DNA from: a virus
Taxonomy: Duplodnaviria; Heunggongvirae; Uroviricota; Caudoviricetes
DNA: 36,012 bases
Strand: one strand, 5' to 3'
Virus record (IMG/VR): IMGVR_UViG_2654587772_000001
How positions within the stretch are numbered: the first letter of the stretch is position 1; each line of letters starts with the position of its first letter. Below, in pieces: positions 4,165 through 28,966 of this stretch. Both the position numbers and the translations under genes were made by a program. The notes under the pieces were generated by a model. That model did not search any database. It had not been told where the DNA came from and saw only the letters and a list, made by a program, of their open reading frames with translations.

Positions 4165-6427
4165 AGCCTCCGGGCGTTTTGTCCCTCCGTCAGCATTTGC
4201 CGCAGGCACCGGTAAGACGTTTACCGGTGCTTATGCATGGAACGCGCCACGCGAGGCCGTCGGGCGCGAAAGACCCCTTACACGTGACGAGATGCGTCAG
4301 GTGCAAGGTGTTTTATCCACGATTAACCGCCTGCCTTACTTTTTGCGTTCGCTGTTTACTTCACGCTATGACTACATCCGGCGCAATAAAAGCCCGGTGC
4401 ACGGGTTTTATTTCCTCACATCCACTTTTCAGCGTCGTTTATGGCCGCGCATTGAGCGCGTGAATCAGCGCCATGAAATGAACACCGACGCGTCGTTGCT
4501 GTTTCTGGCAGAGCGTGACCACTATGCGCGCCTGCCTGGAATGAATGACAAGGAGCTGAAAAAGTTTGCCGCCCGTATCTCATCGCAGCTTTTCATGATG
4601 TATGAGGAACTCTGCGATGCATGGGGTGATGCGCATGGTGAAAAAGAATCGCTGTTTACGGATGAGGCGCAGGCTCACCTCTATGGTCATGTTGCTGGCG
4701 CTGCACGTGCTTTCAATATTTCCCCGCTCTACTGGAAAAAATACCGTAAAGGACAGATGACCACGAGGCAGGCATATTCTGCCATTGCCCGTCTGTTTAA
4801 CGATGAGTGGTGGATTAGTCAGCTTAAAGGCCAGCGTATGCGCTGGCATGAGGCGTTACTGATTGCTGTCGGGGAGGTCAATAAAGACCGTTCTCCTTAT
4901 GCCAGTAAACATGCCATTCGTGATGTGCGTGCGCGCCGCCAGGCAAATCTGGAATTTCTTAAATCGTGTGACCTTGAAAACAGGGAAACCGGCGAGCGCA
5001 TCGACCTTATCAGTAAGGTGATGGGCAGTATTTCTAATCCTGAAATTCGCCGGATGGAGCTGATGAACACCATTGCCGGTATTGAGCGTTACGCCGCCGC
5101 AGAGGGTGATGTGGGGATGTTTATCACGCTGACCGCGCCGTCAAAGTATCACCCGACACGTCAGGTCGGAAAAGGCGAAAGTAAAACCGTTCAGCTTAAT
5201 CACGGCTGGAACGATGAGGCATTTAATCCAAAGGATGCGCAGCGTTATCTCTGCCGTATCTGGAGCCTGATGCGCACGGCATTCAAGGATAATGATTTAC
5301 AGGTCTACGGTTTGCGAGTCGTCGAGCCACACCACGACGGAACGCCGCACTGGCATATGATGCTTTTTTGTCATCCACGCCAGCGTAACCAGATTATCGA
5401 AATCATGCGTCGCTATGCGCTCAAAGAGGATGGCGACGAAAGAGGAGCCGCGCGAAACCGTTTTCAGGCAAAACACCTTAACCGGGGCGGTGCTGCGGGA
5501 TATATCGCGAAATACATTTCAAAAAACATCGACGGCTATGCACTGGATGGTCAGCTCGATAACGACACCGGCAGGCCGCTGAAAGACACTGCAGCGGCTG
5601 TTACCGCATGGGCGTCAACGTGGCGCATTCCGCAATTTAAAACAGTTGGCCTGCCGACAATGGGGGCTTACCGTGAACTACGCAAATTGCCTCGCGGCGT
5701 CAGCATTGCTGATGAGTTTGACGAGCGCGTCGAGGCTGCACGCGCCGCCGCAGACAGTGGTGATTTTGCGTTGTATATCAGCGCGCAGGGTGGGGCAAAT
5801 GTCCCGCGCGATTGTCAGACTGTCAGGGTCGCCCGTAGCCCGTCGGATGACGTTAACGAGTATGAGGAAGAAGTCGAGAGAGTGGTCGGCATTTACGCGC
5901 CGCATCTCGGCGCGCGTCATATTCATATCACCAGAACGACGGACTGGCGCATTGTGCCGAAAGTTCCGGTCGTGGAGCCTTTGACTTTAAAAAGCGGCAT
6001 CGCCGCGCCTCGGAGTCCTGTCAATAACTGTGGAAAACTCACCGGTGGTGATACTTCGTTACCGGCTCCCACACCTTCTGAGCACGCCGCAGCAGTGCTT
6101 AATCTGGTAGATGACGGTGTTATCGAATGGAATGACCAGGAGGTCGTGAGGGCGCTCAGAGGTGCATTAAAACACGGTCTGAGAAGACCAAACCGTCAGC
6201 AAAGAAACGGAAGCCCGTTAAAACCGCATGAAATAGCGCCATCGGCCAGACTGACCCGGTCGGAACGAATGCAAATTACCCGTATCCGCGTTGACCTTGC
6301 TCAGAACGGTATCAGGCCGCAGCGATGGGAGCTTGAGGCGCTGGCGCGTGGTGCAATTGTGAACTATGGCGCAAAAGAATTTCATTACCATGTTCAGAAG
6401 GCGTGGGAAGCATTTTCGAGGTGGTAA
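4154..6427 (+). CDS. A: replication initiation endonuclease A (rolling-circle initiator)
   Basis: Track ORF 4112..6427 starts at TTG; first ATG is 4154 (MDVKASGRFVPP...), about 757 aa; long match to remembered P2 gpA including the HxH metal motif (PHWHMMLF) and the YxxK active-site region (AGYIAKYISK). Confidence 0.9.
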   Translation: MDVKASGRFVPPSAFAAGTGKTFTGAYAWNAPREAVGRERPLTRDEMRQVQGVLSTINRLPYFLRSLFTSRYDYIRRNKSPVHGFYFLTSTFQRRLWPRIERVNQRHEMNTDASLLFLAERDHYARLPGMNDKELKKFAARISSQLFMMYEELCDAWGDAHGEKESLFTDEAQAHLYGHVAGAARAFNISPLYWKKYRKGQMTTRQAYSAIARLFNDEWWISQLKGQRMRWHEALLIAVGEVNKDRSPYASKHAIRDVRARRQANLEFLKSCDLENRETGERIDLISKVMGSISNPEIRRMELMNTIAGIERYAAAEGDVGMFITLTAPSKYHPTRQVGKGESKTVQLNHGWNDEAFNPKDAQRYLCRIWSLMRTAFKDNDLQVYGLRVVEPHHDGTPHWHMMLFCHPRQRNQIIEIMRRYALKEDGDERGAARNRFQAKHLNRGGAAGYIAKYISKNIDGYALDGQLDNDTGRPLKDTAAAVTAWASTWRIPQFKTVGLPTMGAYRELRKLPRGVSIADEFDERVEAARAAADSGDFALYISAQGGANVPRDCQTVRVARSPSDDVNEYEEEVERVVGIYAPHLGARHIHITRTTDWRIVPKVPVVEPLTLKSGIAAPRSPVNNCGKLTGGDTSLPAPTPSEHAAAVLNLVDDGVIEWNDQEVVRALRGALKHGLRRPNRQQRNGSPLKPHEIAPSARLTRSERMQITRIRVDLAQNGIRPQRWELEALARGAIVNYGAKEFHYHVQKAWEAFSRW

Positions 6428-6537: not shown

Positions 6538-7458
6538 ATGGGCTTGGCGATGTATAACGATCCTTATAGTGACCCAAAAGCGTGGGAATCATATTTCAAA
6601 AATATTGTTTGGCTACATTATAAGCCTGCTAACTGTTGTGACTTGCCAGATGAGCATGGAGGCGACTTTGGGCTGGAGTGTTACACTCTGAGTGGTCATG
6701 TTTTTCAGTGTTACTTGCCTGAGCAGTCGAGTGATATTGATAAGCTTTATAAAGCGCAACAAAAAAAGATTTATACTGATATAAAAAAGTTTTCTCAGGA
6801 TAACATTAAAGAATTAGAGGAGCTTTTTGGCACATTAAAAATTAGCCGCTGGATATTAGCTACACCATATAATAAATCGGCGAAATTAAGTCAATATTGC
6901 ACAAAAAAATCATTAAAAGTAAGAGAGTTAGGGATTTCTTACGTTGCTGATGATTTTCAAATAGTAGTGCAAACAGATCGAAATTATATAGAAGAAGCGT
7001 TCTTTCTTCGCAAAAATAACTATCAATTAAGCTTTAATATAAATGATGCGACGGCTGAGAATGCTGCTAACTTTATTAGTGAAAATACATCTTTTTTAGA
7101 TAAGCTAAATTTAAAATTACCTAAGATAAATGATGATGTATCTAGGCAGGGTTTATATAGAGAGTTTTTAATACAAAAATATCTTGATTATCAAAACTTG
7201 CTGGATGCTTTGAAGAGAGACTGGGTTGATATCTATGAAATTATCTATAACTGTGTTCAACATAGAGAACGTAATTTGGTAGGTCTCTTTCTTCTTACTT
7301 CATCAGATGCGAAACCATCAGATATAATGAAAGATGAAATCGCTTTGTTAAAGAAATGTATTGAAGAGGAAGTTAGTACGCTTAAACAGGCTGACTTGGA
7401 TAAGATAACATGGGGAGTTATTTCTGATTGGCTTATAAGATGCCCTTTAGATTTTTAG
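6538..7458 (+). CDS. hypothetical protein, gene 1 of the AT-rich cargo operon (candidate effector component)
   Basis: 306-aa ORF in AT-rich DNA at the tin/old position; no motif recognised by eye apart from a Cys/His-rich N-terminal patch (CCDLPDEHGGDFGLECYTLSGHVFQCY); weak RBS. Confidence 0.6.
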   Translation: MGLAMYNDPYSDPKAWESYFKNIVWLHYKPANCCDLPDEHGGDFGLECYTLSGHVFQCYLPEQSSDIDKLYKAQQKKIYTDIKKFSQDNIKELEELFGTLKISRWILATPYNKSAKLSQYCTKKSLKVRELGISYVADDFQIVVQTDRNYIEEAFFLRKNNYQLSFNINDATAENAANFISENTSFLDKLNLKLPKINDDVSRQGLYREFLIQKYLDYQNLLDALKRDWVDIYEIIYNCVQHRERNLVGLFLLTSSDAKPSDIMKDEIALLKKCIEEEVSTLKQADLDKITWGVISDWLIRCPLDF

Positions 7459-7459
7459 A

Positions 7460-7936
7460 ATGGAAAAGCAAATGCATATAACGATAGATGAAATAATAGG
7501 AAGGCCGTTTACGTTTAATAAACGACCTGAACATTTGCCATGTGATATGAGACCATTGTGGCGTTGCAGTTTGTTGCTGATAATATTCCTTGTCACAGGG
7601 AGAGCTGGTTGCTGTTCTTTAAAAAAACTTCATTTAATTAATTGGATGTTAAAGTCAGAGAATAATGAAGCAATGTTTGAATTCTGGCTTTTAAACAAAG
7701 AAGGTTTAAAGCCTGAAGTAAGATTGGATCCAACTTTAGATAGAGCAATACAGCTATTATTAGCAGAGGATTTTATTTTGAGAAATGAACGAGCGTTCAA
7801 AATAAATGAAAAGGGGCTTAAGGTCGCTGAGAAATTGCTTTCTCTTGATGTGTTCAAAGAAGAAAGGTTGGTGCTAAATAAACATAAGGCTGGACTGTCC
7901 GAAACTAACATTAATAAAATATTTCAGGTGGGTTAA
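7460..7936 (+). CDS. hypothetical small protein, gene 2 of the cargo operon (candidate middle/adaptor component)
   Basis: 158-aa ORF; its ATG lies 1 nt after the gene 1 stop and its stop 1 nt before the gene 3 ATG, indicating translational coupling. Confidence 0.55.
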   Translation: MEKQMHITIDEIIGRPFTFNKRPEHLPCDMRPLWRCSLLLIIFLVTGRAGCCSLKKLHLINWMLKSENNEAMFEFWLLNKEGLKPEVRLDPTLDRAIQLLLAEDFILRNERAFKINEKGLKVAEKLLSLDVFKEERLVLNKHKAGLSETNINKIFQVG

Positions 7937-7937
7937 T

Positions 7938-9959
7938 ATGTCGTTGGAAATTATTTCATTGGAGTTAGTAGCAAATACTTCGGATGGGCGTTATGGTGTT
8001 AGTATACCTTTTTCAAATGGCTTGTTTTTATTAAGAGTTGAGAATTCTCATGGTAAATCAACTTGCATGAATGGGATTGCATATGCACTTGGGATGGAAA
8101 AGGCATTAGGTGTCGGTTCTGGAAAAATCCCATTCCCTCCATCTTTGACTAGAGCACTAACGACAAAAGATAATGTTGAAGTTAGTGTAATATCATCTTA
8201 TGTTTTGCTAAAAATAAAGAATCATAAGGGAATAGAAGCATCTTTGAAAAGGAATATTATCGGTCACGATAATAATAATGTTATTTATATAGATGAGAAG
8301 AATAATGTAAAAAGTAAGAGTGGTACTTATTTTTTACATAGAGAGGGCGATACTGAAAGGGAACGTGGTTTCTATAAGTGGTTAGCTGATTTTATAGGTT
8401 GGAGTTTGCCAAATGTTCCAAACCATAATGGGAAGGACACTATTCTTTATCCATCCGTACTTTTCCCTGCATGGTATGTTGAGCAAAAAAAAGGATGGTC
8501 GTCAATTATGGCGACTGTACCAACACAATTTGGAATTAAAGAGCCAAAGAAAAGAGCTCTAGAATTTTTAATGTCTCTTGATGTTAATGATAATATTTTA
8601 TTGCGTAGTTCGTTAAGAAATGAACTTGATATTATTTATCATGATTGGAAGTTAATTAAACACAATGCAGAAGTTATTGCTTCTAAATTGTCGTCAGTTG
8701 TCACAGGGATTCCTGAACAACCAGTGGCAAAATTTGATCATTATAAGATAGATTTGATTATTAAAAATGGTAGCGTCGTTAGATCTATTGTTGATGTTCG
8801 TAATGAACTGGAAAAAGAGTTGCAAGAAATTAAGTTTGACACTCTTGGTGAGCAAGAAGAACAAACTTTACAATTATCAGTGGTTAAGTTATTAGGTCAA
8901 AAAAATGATGAAATTAACTCTCTGGAATTAAAGATTAAAGAGATTTGTGAGCATAGAAGTTATATTCAATATCAAATTCAGGCGACCAAAAACAGATTGT
9001 ATAATCTGTTGGAAGATAAAAGGAAGTATGAAGATTTAAAGAAAATATCATCTTCGGATGCGTATAAGTCAACAGATTTAATGTCAAATATTTGTCCGAC
9101 TTGTGGTGCAAGTTATAATGATAATTTGCTAAGTTTTTCATCGCAAGAAAATCTGATGACATATGAAGATAGTTTGAACTTTATTAAAGAGCAAGTAAAA
9201 GCATTTGAGTTTGTTCTGTCGGATAGTGAAAAGCAATTAAAGCTTAAAGATGTTGAGAGGAGTGATTTAGAGGGGGAAATAGCCAAGATTAGAGTTGATA
9301 TTAATGCATTAAGGGAGTCAAAATATCCCTCAATGGTTGTTCAGGAGGAGTTTCTGAGACGTAAAATAAACATTGAGAATAAAATTAATGCCATTAACGA
9401 TGGCATTAAAAGTATATTGGACATTAGACTGGAGTTGGATTCATTACACCGTAGATATAAAAAGCTTATCGCGAAAAGAAAAGGGTTGCCAGATAATTTC
9501 TTGTCGCGTAATGATGCCGATAAGTTAAAATTTCTTAATAAAGAAGTCGTTGCACGATTAGAAAAATATAATTTTACAAGTTTTGATTCTAAACTTGTGT
9601 CAATATCAGAAGATAATTACTTACCTACTAGGGAAGGATATGATATAGGTTTTGACACATCAGCTAGTGATGGAATAAGAATCATTTGGGGTTATTTAAT
9701 AAGTTTATTTGTTGTTGGTTCTAAATTTCAAACAAATCACCCTGGATTGATTGTGTTTGATGAGCCTCGTCAACAAGAAGCAAATAAAGTAAGTTTTGCC
9801 GAGTTACTTAAAGATGCTGCAGAAACAACAAAAGGACAAGGGCAGATCATTTTTGCTACATCAGAAGATGAAAATGTCTTAAAAGAGGCATTAGAAGGGT
9901 ATGACTATACAATGATATCCTTTGATAAGAACAATGGGAAATTGTTGAGGAAATTATAA
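7938..9959 (+). CDS. SMC/Rad50-like ABC ATPase with coiled coil and CxxC hook (LmuB/DdmC-like), gene 3 of the cargo operon
   Basis: 673 aa; Walker A VENSHGKST (aa 34-42); long E/K/L-rich heptad-like region aa 280-540; CPTC at aa 386-389 (nt 9093..9104) mid coiled coil; signature-like SASDG and Walker B GLIVFDEP (aa 603-610); SD AGGTGG upstream. Confidence 0.75.
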   Translation: MSLEIISLELVANTSDGRYGVSIPFSNGLFLLRVENSHGKSTCMNGIAYALGMEKALGVGSGKIPFPPSLTRALTTKDNVEVSVISSYVLLKIKNHKGIEASLKRNIIGHDNNNVIYIDEKNNVKSKSGTYFLHREGDTERERGFYKWLADFIGWSLPNVPNHNGKDTILYPSVLFPAWYVEQKKGWSSIMATVPTQFGIKEPKKRALEFLMSLDVNDNILLRSSLRNELDIIYHDWKLIKHNAEVIASKLSSVVTGIPEQPVAKFDHYKIDLIIKNGSVVRSIVDVRNELEKELQEIKFDTLGEQEEQTLQLSVVKLLGQKNDEINSLELKIKEICEHRSYIQYQIQATKNRLYNLLEDKRKYEDLKKISSSDAYKSTDLMSNICPTCGASYNDNLLSFSSQENLMTYEDSLNFIKEQVKAFEFVLSDSEKQLKLKDVERSDLEGEIAKIRVDINALRESKYPSMVVQEEFLRRKINIENKINAINDGIKSILDIRLELDSLHRRYKKLIAKRKGLPDNFLSRNDADKLKFLNKEVVARLEKYNFTSFDSKLVSISEDNYLPTREGYDIGFDTSASDGIRIIWGYLISLFVVGSKFQTNHPGLIVFDEPRQQEANKVSFAELLKDAAETTKGQGQIIFATSEDENVLKEALEGYDYTMISFDKNNGKLLRKL

Positions 9960-19235: not shown

Positions 19236-19775
19236 GTGACATGTAAAAAGAATGAAGGTGATGTTGTAAAGAAAATTGAACTGGTGCTGAAAACAATCGC
19301 GCGGACGGATTCTTATTTAAATTCAGCCAATACTAAATCAACGATATTACTAAGCTTAGCTTCAGCTGTAATTGTTGCTATTATAGCAAATTTTGACAAA
19401 GTTATATGTCTGGTAGATGTGGATAGTGATAGGATTTTTCTCTCTCTTTTATTGATTGTAATAGTTGGGTTATTGGTGATCTCTTTGTTATTTTCTCTAA
19501 AAGGTGTTACTCCAAATATCTCTAAGAGTGATAAGGAGAATACTTTTTCATTTGTTGATATATCAAGTTATTATAGTAGTCTTGATTGCTATTCTAGTAG
19601 TTTTAAGTCAGTGAGTGATCTGGAGTTGTTGGAGCAGTTAATTGCATTGAATTATACTCTTTCCAGAGCATTAACTAGCAAATATGAGATGCAAATCATA
19701 GCCATTGACTTTATAAAAATGGCTGTTTATGTGCTTTGTTTTTTAATATATGTGGTTGCTTTATCTAATTGGTGA
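19236..19775 (+). CDS. small membrane protein with 3 predicted TM helices (candidate membrane effector, SLATT/PycTM-like)
   Basis: 179-aa ORF from GTG 19236 (no in-frame ATG until near the end); SD AGGAAGG upstream; hydrophobic stretches STILLSLASAVIVAIIANF, IFLSLLLIVIVGLLVISLLFSL, MAVYVLCFLIYVVALS; AT-rich. Confidence 0.55.
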   Translation: MTCKKNEGDVVKKIELVLKTIARTDSYLNSANTKSTILLSLASAVIVAIIANFDKVICLVDVDSDRIFLSLLLIVIVGLLVISLLFSLKGVTPNISKSDKENTFSFVDISSYYSSLDCYSSSFKSVSDLELLEQLIALNYTLSRALTSKYEMQIIAIDFIKMAVYVLCFLIYVVALSNW

Positions 19776-19785
19776 AGGTTTTTGT

Positions 19786-21138
19786 ATGTCCATAAAGAGT
19801 ATTTATTTAGTATTAGATGAAAGGCTGGAAGAGATAATTTCAAAATCAAAATCGCAATCAGTCCATGATGCTATATTTGAATCAGTGGATAATACACAGT
19901 TGGCCACGGAGAGCTTAAGTAAATCTTCTGGTTTCGTAAGAAGTTCTATTTCATTGAAAAAAGATGTAGGTGGAGCTGATGTTCAAAGTTATCAGGTGAA
20001 AGATATTGTTAGAAATAAATTTGGCAAGCACGGTCCACTCATGACAAGTTTTGGATGTCATCCGGACTTTAATAAAATGGATGATGGTGAGGTGAGAAAT
20101 GGTTATTCCATTACCATGTTTATGGATATAATCGGCTCAACTAAACTTGGGGTTGTTTTTCCACCAGAAATAGTATTTAGAATCAAAAATGATATTATAA
20201 GATGTGCGATCGAAACAGTGAATGCATTTGATGGTCACGTCCATAGAATTATGGGTGATGCAGTAATGGCATTTTTCCGAAGTAATGACCGATATAAAAA
20301 CAATAAGATCGCAGACAGTGCAATTGATGCAATAAACTGTGCCGTTGTTTTGATTGAAATGTTCAAGGGGGTTGTTATACCTAAATTGAGTGATTTGGGA
20401 GTTGACGAAAACTTAGGAATAAGAATTGGTCTTGACTATGGCCCTCACGAGGAAGTGGTGTGGTCAAAATATGGCTATATGGAAAGTCATGAAGTGACTG
20501 CGACATCTTTTTTTGTTGATGTTGCGGCAAAACTTCAGCAAAAAGCTCCTAAAAACTCAATTATGATAGGTGCAAGTTTTGTAGAGTTATTAGGCCTTGA
20601 TGATGTTCAATTAAAACATAAAATTAACAGAAACAATGGCGTAGAACACAAGGAATTGTATTTAACCCCAAATTATAAAGATGCTTCAGGCAAACCAATA
20701 AATTACAGACAATATGTATTTGATAACGAACGTTATTGTAATTTGCTGCCTATAAATGATGAGGGGGGTAAACTCATTGTAAAAGCAACGCTTAAGAAGA
20801 GTGAAAATGATGTGTCTGATGATGAGTATATTTGTTGTTCTCGAATGATAAAAAAGGGTATGGGTATCTCATTTAAAGGGTACTATTACTCACAAGAACA
20901 GTACTCTAATCCCAGGTTCAAATTTCGTGTCGAAAATACAGGTCCTGATGCAGGTAATGTTGATAATAAGGGTAATCATGAGTCATATGAGGTAGCAAGG
21001 TACACTGGCGAGCGTTATTTTGCTAAGCATTGGGAAGATTGTCATTACAAAGGACTGCATTATATGTTTGTATCTTTTTGGAATGGGGATCAATTAATAG
21101 AAAGGGAGAGGTGTTTTTCAGTTTTTATTAACGATTAA
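19786..21138 (+). CDS. class III nucleotidyl cyclase-domain protein (candidate PycC-like cyclase)
   Basis: 450 aa from ATG 19786 (SD GAAGG 8 nt upstream; track start 19750 overlaps the upstream gene); motifs SITMFMDIIGSTKL (aa 108-121), HRIMGDAVMAFF (153-164), GIRIGLDYGP (211-220), SFFVDVAAKL (241-250) resembling the FxDIxGFT / IGDxxMA / GIHxGxV / VNxAARL blocks of adenylyl/guanylyl-type cyclases. Confidence 0.7.
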   Translation: MSIKSIYLVLDERLEEIISKSKSQSVHDAIFESVDNTQLATESLSKSSGFVRSSISLKKDVGGADVQSYQVKDIVRNKFGKHGPLMTSFGCHPDFNKMDDGEVRNGYSITMFMDIIGSTKLGVVFPPEIVFRIKNDIIRCAIETVNAFDGHVHRIMGDAVMAFFRSNDRYKNNKIADSAIDAINCAVVLIEMFKGVVIPKLSDLGVDENLGIRIGLDYGPHEEVVWSKYGYMESHEVTATSFFVDVAAKLQQKAPKNSIMIGASFVELLGLDDVQLKHKINRNNGVEHKELYLTPNYKDASGKPINYRQYVFDNERYCNLLPINDEGGKLIVKATLKKSENDVSDDEYICCSRMIKKGMGISFKGYYYSQEQYSNPRFKFRVENTGPDAGNVDNKGNHESYEVARYTGERYFAKHWEDCHYKGLHYMFVSFWNGDQLIERERCFSVFIND

Positions 21139-25659: not shown

Positions 25660-26083
25660 GCCATTCAATATCTGGTGCACTGGAGGTATCAACCAGCTCC
25701 AGTGCATCCAGATAATCCAGCCACAAATTATATTGCGCCAGTTCCTCACCTTTCAGACGACCAATAGCGGCTTTACCGGGCCATTGCTTACTGTTCATGT
25801 ATTCGTTGGCCTGGTTAATTAGTAGCTGTCTTTCTGATTCAGTAATTTCAATAAGCTCTTCATGCGTGGGTGGAGGAATATCTGCCCACGCAGGCAGCCC
25901 ATCATCTCCGGCAATACGGATTTTTCCTTGTGGCGGTTCAGCCATAAACTCACTGATAATATTTTGATTTACTTCCTTAGCGTCTGATAAATCCCATCCC
26001 TCTGATTTATATTTATCAATCATATCCACAGGGAAAAAAGCATTATGCCTTGCGCTATAAACATATTCGTTCATATAAATCAC
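25631..26083 (-). CDS. alternative tail fibre assembly chaperone (inverted orientation)
   Basis: 150-aa ORF convergent with G, with related C-terminus (YNLWLDYLDALELVDTSSAPDIEWPTPP). Confidence 0.7.
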   Translation of the reverse strand: MIYMNEYVYSARHNAFFPVDMIDKYKSEGWDLSDAKEVNQNIISEFMAEPPQGKIRIAGDDGLPAWADIPPPTHEELIEITESERQLLINQANEYMNSKQWPGKAAIGRLKGEELAQYNLWLDYLDALELVDTSSAPDIEWPTPPAVQAR

Positions 26084-26094
26084 CCTGAATAAAA

Positions 26095-26463
26095 TTACTC
26101 ACCAACAGCCCACCAACTGTAATTCATCGATACCGTGTCGCTGGTTGATGACGTTCTGTAAGCAGAATTAAAGCCGGTTAACGTTGGGCCTTCTGCAGTC
26201 ATCACGAACCCTCGCCCAGCGCCTAAAGGCGCACCGCCATCACCAGAATGAGTAAGCATGGCGCAGTCCGCTTTTTTGGGGAAAGGGATGCTGAATGTAA
26301 TTCTCATTGTTTGCGTCGATAATGTCGGCGTAACCGCACCACGACCATATTGCAGGATTTTCCCGTTGGGTAATTTCATCCATCCATCACCACTGGCAAA
26401 AGAGGCCATGTCCGGTATCTGATTTTCCCCTGTCCCCACATCCCGTTTTGCCGCTTCTCTCAA
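26095..26463 (-). CDS. alternative tail fibre C-terminal segment (promoter-less and start-less; would fuse to H after inversion)
   Basis: Open frame on the minus strand running to the crossover site at about 26466 with no credible own start; Gly/Thr/Ser-rich fibre-tip-like sequence. Confidence 0.6.
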   Translation of the reverse strand: MREAAKRDVGTGENQIPDMASFASGDGWMKLPNGKILQYGRGAVTPTLSTQTMRITFSIPFPKKADCAMLTHSGDGGAPLGAGRGFVMTAEGPTLTGFNSAYRTSSTSDTVSMNYSWWAVGE

Positions 26464-26480
26464 ACCAACGTTTTATGGAA
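26455..26480. repeat. invertase crossover site (hix/gix-like), right copy
   Basis: TTCTCTCAAACCAACGTTTTATGGAA; inverted-repeat partner of 24548..24573. Confidence 0.45.
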
Positions 26481-26570
26481 TCGGTTAAATATGATGTTGA
26501 AAGAAGGGAGTGTCCTAGTATTGATTGTTAGATAAAAATGGAAAGTGCTGATTGTAACGGTATATTTTAA

Positions 26571-26598
26571 GATGGTAACACCAAATGGTGCTACCATC
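26571..26598. terminator. candidate bidirectional rho-independent terminator
   Basis: Hairpin GATGGTAACACC-AAAT-GGTGCTACCATC followed by TTTATT on the + strand and by an A/T-rich tract on the - strand; lies just downstream of the minus-strand 105-aa gene. Confidence 0.4.
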
Positions 26599-26606
26599 TT
26601 TATTAG

Positions 26607-26924
26607 TTATCTGTTCCTTCTGAGGATTCCGCTACTCCCTTGTGTTGTAGGGTTTAATTTTTTCCAATAATGATAACCTTGTGATGTAATCCTTAGAGAG
26701 GCAGTATCTACACTCCATCCATCAATACTTTCAGGAGAACCATCGAAGATTACCTTTCCTGTAAGATACCCATCGTCATGCAGAAAGGCGATATATCCAT
26801 AAACTTCTTTTAAATCACCAATTTCATTGACTAGGCGTTCCCACGCTTGAACAGTGATTCTCTCTGGATAGGCTTCGACAAAATATTTCAGTGTGGTAGT
26901 TTTTTTATTGGTATCGATGTTCAT
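26607..26924 (-). CDS. hypothetical protein (AT-rich moron between the invertible segment and the invertase)
   Basis: 105-aa ORF with ATG at 26924 and a good SD (AAGGAAA) upstream on the minus strand; AT-rich; no recognisable motif. Confidence 0.5.
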   Translation of the reverse strand: MNIDTNKKTTTLKYFVEAYPERITVQAWERLVNEIGDLKEVYGYIAFLHDDGYLTGKVIFDGSPESIDGWSVDTASLRITSQGYHYWKKLNPTTQGSSGILRRNR

Positions 26925-27122
26925 CAGATTTTCCTTTTATTGAGGTCAACCTATCTTACCATACTTATTTGTTTCACATGGGAATGCTAAGTGGGCTATG
27001 TATCCACTATCAGTAAATATTCTTATCCAGCAAGATTACTGTAACTGAGAGCTCCATAGCCTTGTCCGCTTGTACATATATAGATAATTCTGTGTCATTA
27101 TTCTGTTTTTATAGGGATTTTT

Positions 27123-27716
27123 ATGCGTATAGGTTATGTTCGTGTATCAACAAATGACCAGAACACGGAATTGCAGCGTAACGCGCTCGAGTGCGCAGGA
27201 TGTGAGCTGATTTTTGAGGATAAAATCAGCGGCACGAAGTCCGACCGACCGGGGCTGAAAAAACTGCTCAGAACATTATCAGCAGGTGACACTCTGGTAG
27301 TCTGGAAGCTGGACAGGCTGGGGCGTAGTATGCGGCATCTGGTCATTCTGGTTGAGGAACTGCGCGAACGCGGCATTAATTTTCGCAGCCTGACAGATGC
27401 TATTGATACCAGCACGCCGATGGGGCGTTTTTTCTTTCATGTGATGGGTGCCCTGGCTGAAATGGAACGAGAACTCATTGTCGAACGGACTCGGGCCGGG
27501 CTGGAAGCGGCCAGAGCCAAAGGTCGTATTGGTGGCAGACGTCCTAAACTCACCACGAGTGAGTGGGAGCAGGTCGGGCGTTTGCTGGCTGCAGGGGAGT
27601 CACGTCAACGCGTGGCACTGATTTTTGATATTGGCCTGTCCACGCTCTATAAAAAATTTCCCTCATCAGCGATAAAGAATAAATTGTGTCATCCCTTAGC
27701 CAACCGGGACAAATAG
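27123..27716 (+). CDS. serine DNA invertase (Hin/Gin/Pin/Cin family)
   Basis: 197-aa ORF; N-terminal resolvase catalytic domain with GYVRVST-DQ (Ser nucleophile), LVVWKLDRLGRS, and a C-terminal HTH; closely resembles Hin/Gin. Confidence 0.9.
   Translation: MRIGYVRVSTNDQNTELQRNALECAGCELIFEDKISGTKSDRPGLKKLLRTLSAGDTLVVWKLDRLGRSMRHLVILVEELRERGINFRSLTDAIDTSTPMGRFFFHVMGALAEMERELIVERTRAGLEAARAKGRIGGRRPKLTTSEWEQVGRLLAAGESRQRVALIFDIGLSTLYKKFPSSAIKNKLCHPLANRDK
27684..27710 (+). promoter_or_regulatory. late-promoter upstream element (candidate PF) TTGTGTCATCCCTTAGCCAACCGGGAC
   Basis: 21/27 identical to the element upstream of O (13146..13172); ends about 66 nt before the FI start; lies inside the 3' end of the invertase gene. 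Confidence 0.45.
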
Positions 27717-27775
27717 CCTGACATCTCCGGCACAACTGAAAATATCACTCACCCATTAACCACGGAGTTAAACGG

Positions 27776-28966
27776 ATGAGTGACTATCATCACGGCGTGC
27801 AGGTGCTGGAGATTAACGACGGCACCCGCGTCATTTCCACCGTATCCACTGCCATTGTCGGCATGGTCTGCACGGCCAGCGATGCGGATGCGGAAACCTT
27901 CCCCCTCAATAAACCTGTGCTGATTACCAATGTGCAGAGCGCAATTGCAAAGGCCGGTAAAAAAGGCACGCTGGCGGCATCGTTGCAGGCCATCGCCGAC
28001 CAGTCAAAACCGGTCACCGTTGTCGTGCGTGTGGAAGACGGCACCGGCGACGACGAGGAAACGAAACTCGCGCAGACTGTTTCCAATATCATCGGCACCA
28101 CCGACGAAAACGGTCAGTACACCGGACTGAAAGCCCTGCTGGCGGCGGAGTCTGTTACCGGTGTTAAACCGCGTATTCTCGGCGTGCCGGGACTGGACAC
28201 CAAAGAGGTGGCTGTTGCACTGGCATCAGTCTGTCAGAAGCTGCGCGCTTTCGGATATATCAGCGCATGGGGCTGTAAGACCATTTCCGAGGTGAAAGCC
28301 TACCGCCAGAATTTCAGCCAGCGTGAGCTGATGGTCATCTGGCCGGATTTCCTCGCATGGGATACGGTCACCAGTACCACCGCCACCGCGTATGCCACCG
28401 CCCGTGCGCTGGGTCTGCGCGCTAAAATCGACCAGGAGCAGGGCTGGCATAAAACGCTGTCCAACGTCGGGGTGAACGGTGTTACCGGCATCAGCGCCTC
28501 TGTATTCTGGGATTTGCAGGAGTCCGGCACCGATGCTGACCTGCTTAATGAGTCAGGCGTCACTACGCTGATTCGCCGCGACGGTTTCCGCTTCTGGGGT
28601 AACCGTACCTGCTCTGATGACCCGCTGTTCCTCTTTGAAAACTACACCCGCACCGCGCAGGTGCTGGCCGACACGATGGCTGAGGCGCACATGTGGGCGG
28701 TGGACAAGCCCATCACCGCAACGCTGATTCGCGACATCGTTGACGGCATCAATGCCAAATTCCGTGAGCTGAAAACAAACGGCTATATCGTGGATGCGAC
28801 CTGCTGGTTCAGCGAAGAATCCAACGATGCGGAAACCCTCAAGGCCGGAAAACTGTATATCGACTACGACTATACCCCGGTGCCTCCTCTTGAAAACCTG
28901 ACCCTGCGCCAGCGTATCACCGATAAATACCTGGCAAATCTGGTCACCTCGGTTAACAGCAATTAA
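27776..28966 (+). CDS. FI: tail sheath protein FI
   Basis: 396-aa ORF; P2 gpFI length and sequence. Confidence 0.95.
   Translation: MSDYHHGVQVLEINDGTRVISTVSTAIVGMVCTASDADAETFPLNKPVLITNVQSAIAKAGKKGTLAASLQAIADQSKPVTVVVRVEDGTGDDEETKLAQTVSNIIGTTDENGQYTGLKALLAAESVTGVKPRILGVPGLDTKEVAVALASVCQKLRAFGYISAWGCKTISEVKAYRQNFSQRELMVIWPDFLAWDTVTSTTATAYATARALGLRAKIDQEQGWHKTLSNVGVNGVTGISASVFWDLQESGTDADLLNESGVTTLIRRDGFRFWGNRTCSDDPLFLFENYTRTAQVLADTMAEAHMWAVDKPITATLIRDIVDGINAKFRELKTNGYIVDATCWFSEESNDAETLKAGKLYIDYDYTPVPPLENLTLRQRITDKYLANLVTSVNSN

Follow-up and report, generated by a model that had tools for sequence, protein, structure and literature searches.

The 36,012-nt stretch of DNA analysed here (IMG/VR record IMGVR_UViG_2654587772_000001, Caudoviricetes; hereafter the window) carries, between an invertible tail-fibre segment and a serine DNA invertase gene, an AT-rich block with one minus-strand open reading frame (ORF) for a protein of 105 amino acids (aa), and it is the origin and possible role of this ORF that are considered in the following (Table 1). 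The 801 bases around the block are 100% identical to E. coli ST2747 (NZ_CP007394.1), and the RefSeq annotation of the surrounding region identifies a P2-like prophage as the host of the block. The gene order is baseplate V-W-J-I, tail fibre H, two opposed tail-fibre assembly genes and an alternative fibre C-terminus, followed by the 105-aa ORF, a gene annotated as 'recombinase family protein', sheath FI, tube FII, E, T, U and D. The GC content in 200-nt windows is 34.5-41% from 26500 to 27100 and 52-58% on either side; the low value for the block as a whole compares with 47-55% in the 2-kb flanks and 49.9% in the whole window. A scan of positions 26000-27800 against Rfam returned sub-threshold noise only.

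Table 1. Features of the AT-rich block and of related loci in the window.
Feature	Position	Strand	Details
AT-rich block	26474..27104		631 bp, 36.5% GC; edges from insert-free loci
105-aa ORF, ATG start	26607..26924	-	WP_025210643.1, annotated 'hypothetical protein'
Shine-Dalgarno sequence AAGGAAA	26930..26936	-	6-12 nt 5' of ATG; read from the sequence
Candidate extended -10 element TGgTAAGAT	26953..26961	-	29-37 nt 5' of ATG; conserved in upstream alignment
Stem-loop, 14-bp stem	26569..26600	-	6 nt past the stop codon of the ORF
Mobile core (candidate promoter and ORF)	26599..26998	-	400 bp; from blastn against L003 and L004
Divergent intergenic region, ORF/invertase	26925..27122		198 bp, 34% GC
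Imperfect palindrome TTCCCATGTGAA	26973-26984	-	just upstream of the candidate -10 element of the ORF
Direct repeat ATwATTCTGT, two copies of 10 nt	27084-27106	+	just 5' of the ribosome-binding site of the invertase gene
Left crossover site TTCTCGCATACCTTGGTTTGGGAGAA	24546..24571	+	inside tail-fibre gene H
Right crossover site TTCTCTCAAACCAACGTTTTATGGAA	26455..26480	+	gix/cix-like, 26 bp
Serine DNA invertase (Pin/Gin/Cin type)	27123..27716	+	divergent from the ORF
Lamassu system, LmuA/LmuC/LmuB	6538-9959	+	old/tin hotspot, upstream of the portal gene
Pycsar pair	19236-21138	+	between tail-completion gene S and baseplate gene V
PycTM effector	19236-19775		179 aa, E 8.5e-29
PycC cyclase	19750-21138		462 aa, E 1.6e-128

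The edges of the block were set by comparison with loci that possess the invertase and lack the ORF, namely one e14-type locus (L002) and three P2-like loci (L022, L023 and L024). Homology to these insert-free loci ends at 26473 and restarts at 27105-27114, so that the left edge of the block falls within the outer half-site of the right crossover site and its right edge about 10-18 nt short of the invertase ATG. In the insert-free loci, a spacer of about 53 bp lies between the crossover site and the start codon of the invertase gene, and the 631-bp block is found here in its place. The block has displaced the native upstream region of the invertase gene, whose upstream signals must now be supplied by the divergent region that lies between this gene and the ORF. 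The original prediction had described an AT-rich moron at 26484-27122, between the invertible segment and the invertase, and the edges determined here differ from those claimed by only about 10-18 nt; its placement is confirmed by the two crossover sites and the position of the invertase gene. The interpretation as a moron is, moreover, well supported by the comparison of loci. The junction between invertase and FI was present (at least 80% coverage) in about 546 of 5426 complete E. coli genomes, the block in only 23 of these genomes, and collinear relatives differ by its presence or absence; the base composition is deviant, and the location, an operon end between the tail-fibre/assembly genes and FI, is the Z/fun hotspot of P2, the ORF sharing with P2 fun(Z) both the locus and the orientation against the late operons. 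As had also been claimed, the minus-strand ORF lies among late genes and would be transcribed in the direction opposite to theirs. The original prediction would have been weakened by absence or disruption of the ORF in closely related prophages: it is indeed absent from close relatives, while disrupted alleles were not found among the copies inspected. Absence from close relatives is expected of a moron and is no argument against function.

The ORF was found intact, at 318 bp, in every copy inspected. Comparison with a 76%-identical Citrobacter copy revealed 59 substitutions, corresponding to 27.8 synonymous and 31.2 non-synonymous differences, with a synonymous divergence (dS) of 0.60, a non-synonymous divergence (dN) of 0.14 and a dN/dS ratio of 0.20-0.23, and this low ratio indicates that the ORF evolves under purifying selection. 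Homologous loci keep the Shine-Dalgarno sequence as AAAGGAG in the alignment of the upstream regions. The length of the ORF alone is weak evidence for a gene, since 54 of 5000 shuffles of the block (about 1%) contained an ORF of at least 105 codons. This shuffling result might be taken to mean that the ORF exists by chance or is a passenger in decay, without function, as might the great rarity of the family, which has 23 carriers in 5426 E. coli genomes and 14 representatives in a set of 1.8 billion proteins. Such an explanation is already disfavoured and appears very improbable in view of a dN/dS of about 0.2 across the 59 substitutions, the intactness of all inspected copies, the confident predicted fold described below and the existence of homologues, some with no more than 25% identity, in Pantoea, Cronobacter, Lonsdalea and Kosakonia. 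Taken together, the dN/dS ratio, the homologues and the predicted fold argue that the ORF is a real gene, with the coordinates, strand, ATG start and Shine-Dalgarno sequence that had been assigned to it and that can be read from the sequence and the list of ORFs.

With respect to the signals that flank the gene, the candidate extended -10 element reads TGnTAAAAT in relatives (aligned upstream regions of E. coli, of two Citrobacter lineages and of locus L011). In blastn comparisons, the mobile core showed 81% nucleotide identity to Citrobacter prophages (L003 and L004) whose flanks differ, and this homology is limited to the ORF, 8 nt past its stop codon and 74 nt 5' of its ATG. The alignment of the upstream and downstream parts of the loci showed that the hairpin behind the gene is conserved among the E. 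coli copies only; L011 has a different 3' end with a canonical terminator, i.e., a GC stem plus T-run. Since the 400-bp core is shared and the hairpin is restricted to the E. coli copies, the moving unit is the candidate promoter plus the gene, the 3' end being supplied or kept by each host locus. As regards the window itself, the stem-loop on the minus-strand RNA has a folding energy of -22.5 kcal/mol (z = -5.6), and none of 200 shuffles folded as well. Its stem is perfect on the minus strand, where a G.U pair is formed, and has an A.C mismatch at that place on the plus strand, which fits a structure that was selected in the transcript of the ORF itself. In P2, a 'putative rho-independent terminator for V operon' is annotated 8 nt from the fun(Z) stop codon. 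Because this P2 terminator sits at the equivalent place, a bidirectional role of the hairpin in separating the opposed operons is plausible by analogy, and the stem-loop is likely to be a transcript-end or bidirectional terminator element, albeit a putative one.

Among 5.8 billion clustered proteins, five close clusters with 60-99% identity to the window protein were found. An exhaustive profile search of 1.84 billion representatives yielded 14 matches at E <= 1e-3, about 10 of them credible small proteins. A further profile search added proteins of Pantoea, Cronobacter, Lonsdalea and Kosakonia with 23-33% identity. A tblastn search of plasmids gave a single match, on a Kosakonia conjugative plasmid, and no relative could be confirmed in a scan of the GTDB species-representative genomes. 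Against PHROGs, the window protein alone gave sub-threshold matches only (E of about 0.1-0.2; 0.18 for PHROG 3983), whereas all 16 aligned family members matched PHROG 3983, itself without an assigned function, at E <= 1 (best 8.8e-11). Three of 13 members matched the Pfam family YjcQ (PF09639) at E <= 10, collinearly and with 12.7-16 bits; the gathering threshold of 23.3 bits was not reached, the best member scoring 16.0 bits and the window protein giving no match. The match to DUF2513 (PF10711) was weak, with 13.4 bits. The PDB was searched by sequence, using either the single protein or the family profile, and gave noise only, e.g., antibody chains. We regard the family as small, uncharacterised and enterobacterial and, on the evidence of profiles and predicted structure, as distantly YjcQ/DUF2513-like.

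Structure prediction by AlphaFold2 with an alignment of 16 sequences gave a model with a predicted local distance difference test score (pLDDT) of 79 and a predicted template modelling score (pTM) of 0.68; with only six close sequences the prediction was uninformative (pLDDT 50). The model comprises helices at residues 5-17, 25-35 and 38-50, a beta-hairpin wing (58-60 and 70-72), a further helix at 81-90 and a disordered, basic tail at 95-105 (GILRRNR), and the predicted fold is a stand-alone winged helix of the YjcQ type. Foldseek searches of PDB and BFVD retrieved winged helices of the PadR, F-93 and YjcQ types, and viral proteins named 'YjcQ protein' in BFVD were matched with TM-scores of 0.62-0.63. 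The family is acidic to neutral, with isoelectric points of 4.5-6.7 and net charges of 0 to -12. Its most conserved stretch, KEVYGYIAFLHDDGYL, corresponds to helix 3 and the following turn and is aromatic/acidic, not basic; the third helix itself (KEVYGYIAFLHDD) contains almost no basic or polar residues of the kind that read DNA. Many members, with the exception of one subfamily, carry at the extreme C-terminus, past a flexible linker, a glycine-hydrophobic-hydrophobic-arginine-arginine (G-h-h-R-R) motif, for example GILRRNR at residues 98-105 of the window protein, GLIRRERRY, GWIRR or NIRRR. This motif looks like a short docking peptide and may loosely resemble the core, FLRKQ, of the C-terminal peptide of FtsZ. 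No signal peptide, lipobox or transmembrane segment was detected in the window protein, the N-terminus is hydrophilic and the maximum mean Kyte-Doolittle hydropathy over 19 residues is 0.51. Because of the fold, the acidity, the aromatic/acidic helix 3, the C-terminal motif and the lack of a hydrophobic segment, we infer that the protein is a cytoplasmic, non-enzymatic binder, and binding to a protein seems somewhat more likely than sequence-specific binding to DNA.

The latter possibility deserves attention, since the DNA-binding domains of MarR, PadR and CggR are the top structural matches. In this alternative, the gene product would be a winged-helix regulator that controls the promoter of the divergent invertase gene and/or its own promoter and thereby tunes the switching of the tail fibres. 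The displacement of the native upstream region of the invertase gene and the 198-bp divergent region common to both genes would agree with this, as would the finding that a 64%-identical homologue on the IMG/VR contig L029 is likewise divergent to a decayed invertase gene, and that the imperfect palindrome just upstream of the candidate -10 element is kept in Citrobacter L003. On the other hand, the gene is found in only 23 of the about 546 invertase-bearing loci, most homologues have no invertase nearby, and the domain is acidic, with the third helix nearly devoid of basic or polar reading residues. Moreover, the intergenic region contains no convincing operator repeats, one 10-nt direct repeat (Table 1) being the only one found; this repeat and the palindrome might possibly be operator-like elements or might be due to chance. 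Overall, a regulator of this kind seems quite unlikely. A dedicated part of the inversion system was likewise considered and found unlikely, given that the gene is absent from most invertase loci, and an invertase from most loci of homologues.

Further observations concern the inversion system itself. The inner half-sites of the left and right crossover sites match at 11 of 12 positions, and among the carriers of the block the tail-fibre segment was seen in both orientations. In the near-identical soil isolates E. coli MEI1A-0323 and MEI2O1-23 (L033 and L034), the segment differs in orientation, with the two assembly genes swapped, and the adjacent invertase gene is annotated as 'frameshifted; internal stop' in both. 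The flipping in this pair is not attributable to the invertase in cis because of this frameshift annotation, which suggests either that another Pin-family invertase acted in trans or that there is a sequencing or annotation problem. The invertase gene that is divergent to the homologue on L029 (2481-2917, minus strand) has ATA in place of ATG and encodes a resolvase domain of 139 aa only; to judge from its sequence, it looks to be decaying. A 95-aa protein of the 1.84-billion-protein library (P0008) is a chimera in which the N-terminus of the invertase (MSTNDQNTALQRNALESAGCELIF...GDTLVAWK) is followed in frame by the last two-thirds of an L029-type homologue, the junction being a W-K common to both partners. 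Since the source genes are divergent neighbours, this fusion either needs an inversion or is an assembly artefact. Homology of the window to P2-like prophages that have no invertase restarts at about 27684-27696, within the 3' end of the invertase gene, and only 60 bp separate the invertase stop codon from the ATG of FI (region of about 27684-27776). Judging from the annotation of P2, the end of the invertase ORF probably overlaps with the Ogr-dependent promoter pF and with the site for its activator.

The relatives of the gene occupy different genomic contexts. Members of the close subfamily (at least 60% identity) always lie directly behind a tail-fibre or assembly gene, in convergent orientation, and on at least five backbones: they were found at the ends of Citrobacter P2-like prophages, adjoining DinI and S24-peptidase cargo, in a different Citrobacter prophage adjoining host cytochrome bc1 genes, in a P2-like sheath/TAP locus without invertase and on the IMG/VR contigs L028 and L029. 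Members of the distant subfamily are found in lambdoid prophages, where they lie in antisense orientation between lysis cassette and terminase genes, again on at least five backbones, and one homologue resides on a conjugative plasmid. None of the contexts examined revealed a conserved partner gene. All of these positions are classical operon-end moron sites. The constant neighbourhood of the close subfamily to tail-fibre or assembly genes might suggest a receptor-directed superinfection exclusion that is tied to the adjacent tail-fibre module, as for Cor or Llp. However, the signal peptide, lipobox or transmembrane segment expected in that case is missing and the hydropathy maximum is low, the distant homologues are located at lysis-terminase junctions instead, and the position behind the fibre genes is also simply an operon end that tolerates insertions; we therefore consider this explanation hardly probable. 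In its strict form, a receptor-blocking lipoprotein of the Cor/Llp type, it was ruled out by the missing export signals, and a role as tail-fibre chaperone or structural protein was rejected owing to the opposite strand and the different locations of the distant homologues.

On two IMG/VR prophage contigs (L030 and L031), genes for Acb2/Tad1 hairpin domains (Pfam PF24729; 4624-4998, minus strand, E 4e-10, and 4619-4939, minus strand, E 4e-18, respectively) are divergent to distant homologues in the lysis-terminase accessory region. As Acb2/Tad1-hairpin-domain proteins are known anti-CBASS/Thoeris sponges, this neighbourhood, together with the small size, the acidity, the lack of an enzymatic domain and the possible docking tail of the protein, is compatible with an anti-defence factor that neutralises a host immune protein through direct binding. 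Contrarily, the gene runs against the phage genes around it, the Acb2-like ones among them, its candidate promoter looks constitutive, similarity to known anti-defence families was not found, and anti-defence genes are rare in P2-like phages (PMC13586616). An anti-defence function of this kind is, hence, unlikely in our view.

The explanation that we favour, with moderate confidence, is that the gene is a self-contained moron in the P2 Z/fun hotspot that encodes a cytoplasmic binder expressed in the lysogen, with a role in conversion or exclusion. Following this, we propose that the gene is driven by a sigma-70 promoter of its own, independent of and antisense to the Ogr-activated late operons, and, because of this presumed independence, that its product would be made in the lysogen. 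The end of the transcript would be formed by the stem-loop that immediately precedes the crossover site. The protein would then act stoichiometrically in the cytoplasm, where its winged-helix body, with the aromatic/acidic third helix, and its C-terminal G-h-h-R-R tail would probably bind a protein of the host or of an incoming phage, and less probably a nucleic acid. The likeliest pay-off would be lysogenic conversion or phage exclusion, a role analogous to that of P2 Fun(Z) although the sequence is not. A bolder and only tentative extension would see in the acidic YjcQ-like family with its G-h-h-R-R tail a new class of single-gene prophage factor, namely a binder of proteins in the cytoplasm that would either keep out superinfecting phages or inactivate a protein of the host or of a defence system, and that would spread as a 400-bp promoter-plus-gene cassette between the post-tail-fibre and lysis-terminase hotspots of unrelated enterobacterial prophages.

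Several observations speak against the favoured explanation. The nearest structural neighbours of the protein are DNA-binding regulators, and the acidity of the family is only weak evidence against DNA binding. The candidate extended -10 element was not called by a scan for the -35/-10 consensus, so that the promoter is derived from conservation only, and AT-rich islands are often silenced by H-NS in E. coli, so that expression may be low. The hairpin is followed by AAAAUAUACC, without a U-tract, and it was not called by a terminator scan; of the 'own terminator' that had been claimed for the gene, the strong hairpin after the stop codon stands, while the U-tract and the scan call are lacking. 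Scans of the 105-aa protein against Pfam, NCBIfam and PADLOC gave no match at E <= 10, despite the fact that the same library (PADLOC-DB v2) readily recognised the Lamassu and Pycsar systems elsewhere in the window. In a tblastn search of 50,697 sequenced phage records, three family members used as queries found no homologue, and literature searches on YjcQ, DUF2513 and the WP accessions yielded nothing functional for the family.

The same prophage carries defence genes at two other cargo sites (Table 1). The Lamassu system at the old/tin hotspot consists of LmuA (306 aa), LmuC (158 aa) and LmuB (673 aa), which matched PADLOC models with E-values of 1e-29, 2.5e-23 and 1e-98, respectively. The Pycsar pair is complete, and its PycC is annotated in RefSeq only as 'adenylate/guanylate cyclase domain-containing protein'. 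As Lamassu and Pycsar occupy these two sites, the cargo sites of the prophage appear to be used for defence, which is circumstantial evidence with regard to the 105-aa gene. P2-like hotspots have proved rich in new anti-phage systems, and with Lamassu and Pycsar at the two other cargo sites, the gene at the third is a reasonable candidate for testing, even though it is a modest one for a new factor of benefit to the lysogen. If a phenotype were found, it would provide the first function for a small winged-helix family that recurs at enterobacterial prophage moron sites and would show that very small, non-enzymatic Z/fun cargo genes are functional; if the product indeed proved to be a binder, it would be the first function for the YjcQ/DUF2513 fold. 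If there were no phenotype, the gene would be merely another hypothetical moron.

Comparison with known systems places the gene closest to small prophage winged helices by fold and to P2 cargo by location. YjcQ (PF09639; PDB 2hgc) and DUF2513 (PF10711) are likewise stand-alone winged helices of about 80-100 aa with the same order of elements; they are small prophage proteins, equally uncharacterised, and proteins named YjcQ are among the best viral matches in BFVD. YjcQ stems mostly from Firmicutes and their phages. The enterobacterial family described here differs by its sub-threshold hidden Markov model scores and by its additional basic C-terminal tail. MarR and PadR regulators share the fold alone: the 105-aa protein lacks the N- and C-terminal dimerisation helices of MarR, is acidic, has an aromatic/acidic helix 3 in place of a basic reading helix and gave no match to the helix-turn-helix families of Pfam. 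Cor of phi80, N15 and HK022 and Llp of T5 are likewise encoded by cargo genes beside a tail-fibre or receptor-binding module, but they are exported lipoproteins or outer-membrane proteins, and the protein studied here has no export signal.

Classical morons, in the concept of Hendrix and Juhala, are units of promoter, gene and terminator between the late genes of lambdoid and P2-like phages. The gene of the window resembles them in its patchy presence, deviant GC content, promoter-like element, 3' hairpin and operon-end location, and departs from them in that the hairpin has no U-tract and that both promoter and terminator are putative. A close counterpart is fun(Z) of P2, a non-essential, minus-strand gene for lysogenic conversion that encodes 528 aa and blocks T5. 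In both cases the gene lies past the tail-fibre module and before the FI sheath gene, is oriented against the late operons, is followed directly past its stop codon by a stem-loop that faces the incoming late operon, and has, or would have, a cargo role. Unlike fun(Z), the locus described here also contains a DNA invertase, and its 105-aa winged helix has no known T5-exclusion phenotype. Homology to Fun(Z) was ruled out by hhalign with the family profile (probability 0.1%, E 0.56). The Z/fun hotspot has been reported with frequent DNA invertases and mixed cargo (bioRxiv 10.1101/2024.10.15.618418) and is also covered in PMC13586616, and old/tin, the other P2-like hotspot, was analysed by Rousset et al. 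(PMC9122126). Thus, that the Z/fun hotspot carries accessory genes is already known, and what is new is its uncharacterised 105-aa cargo.

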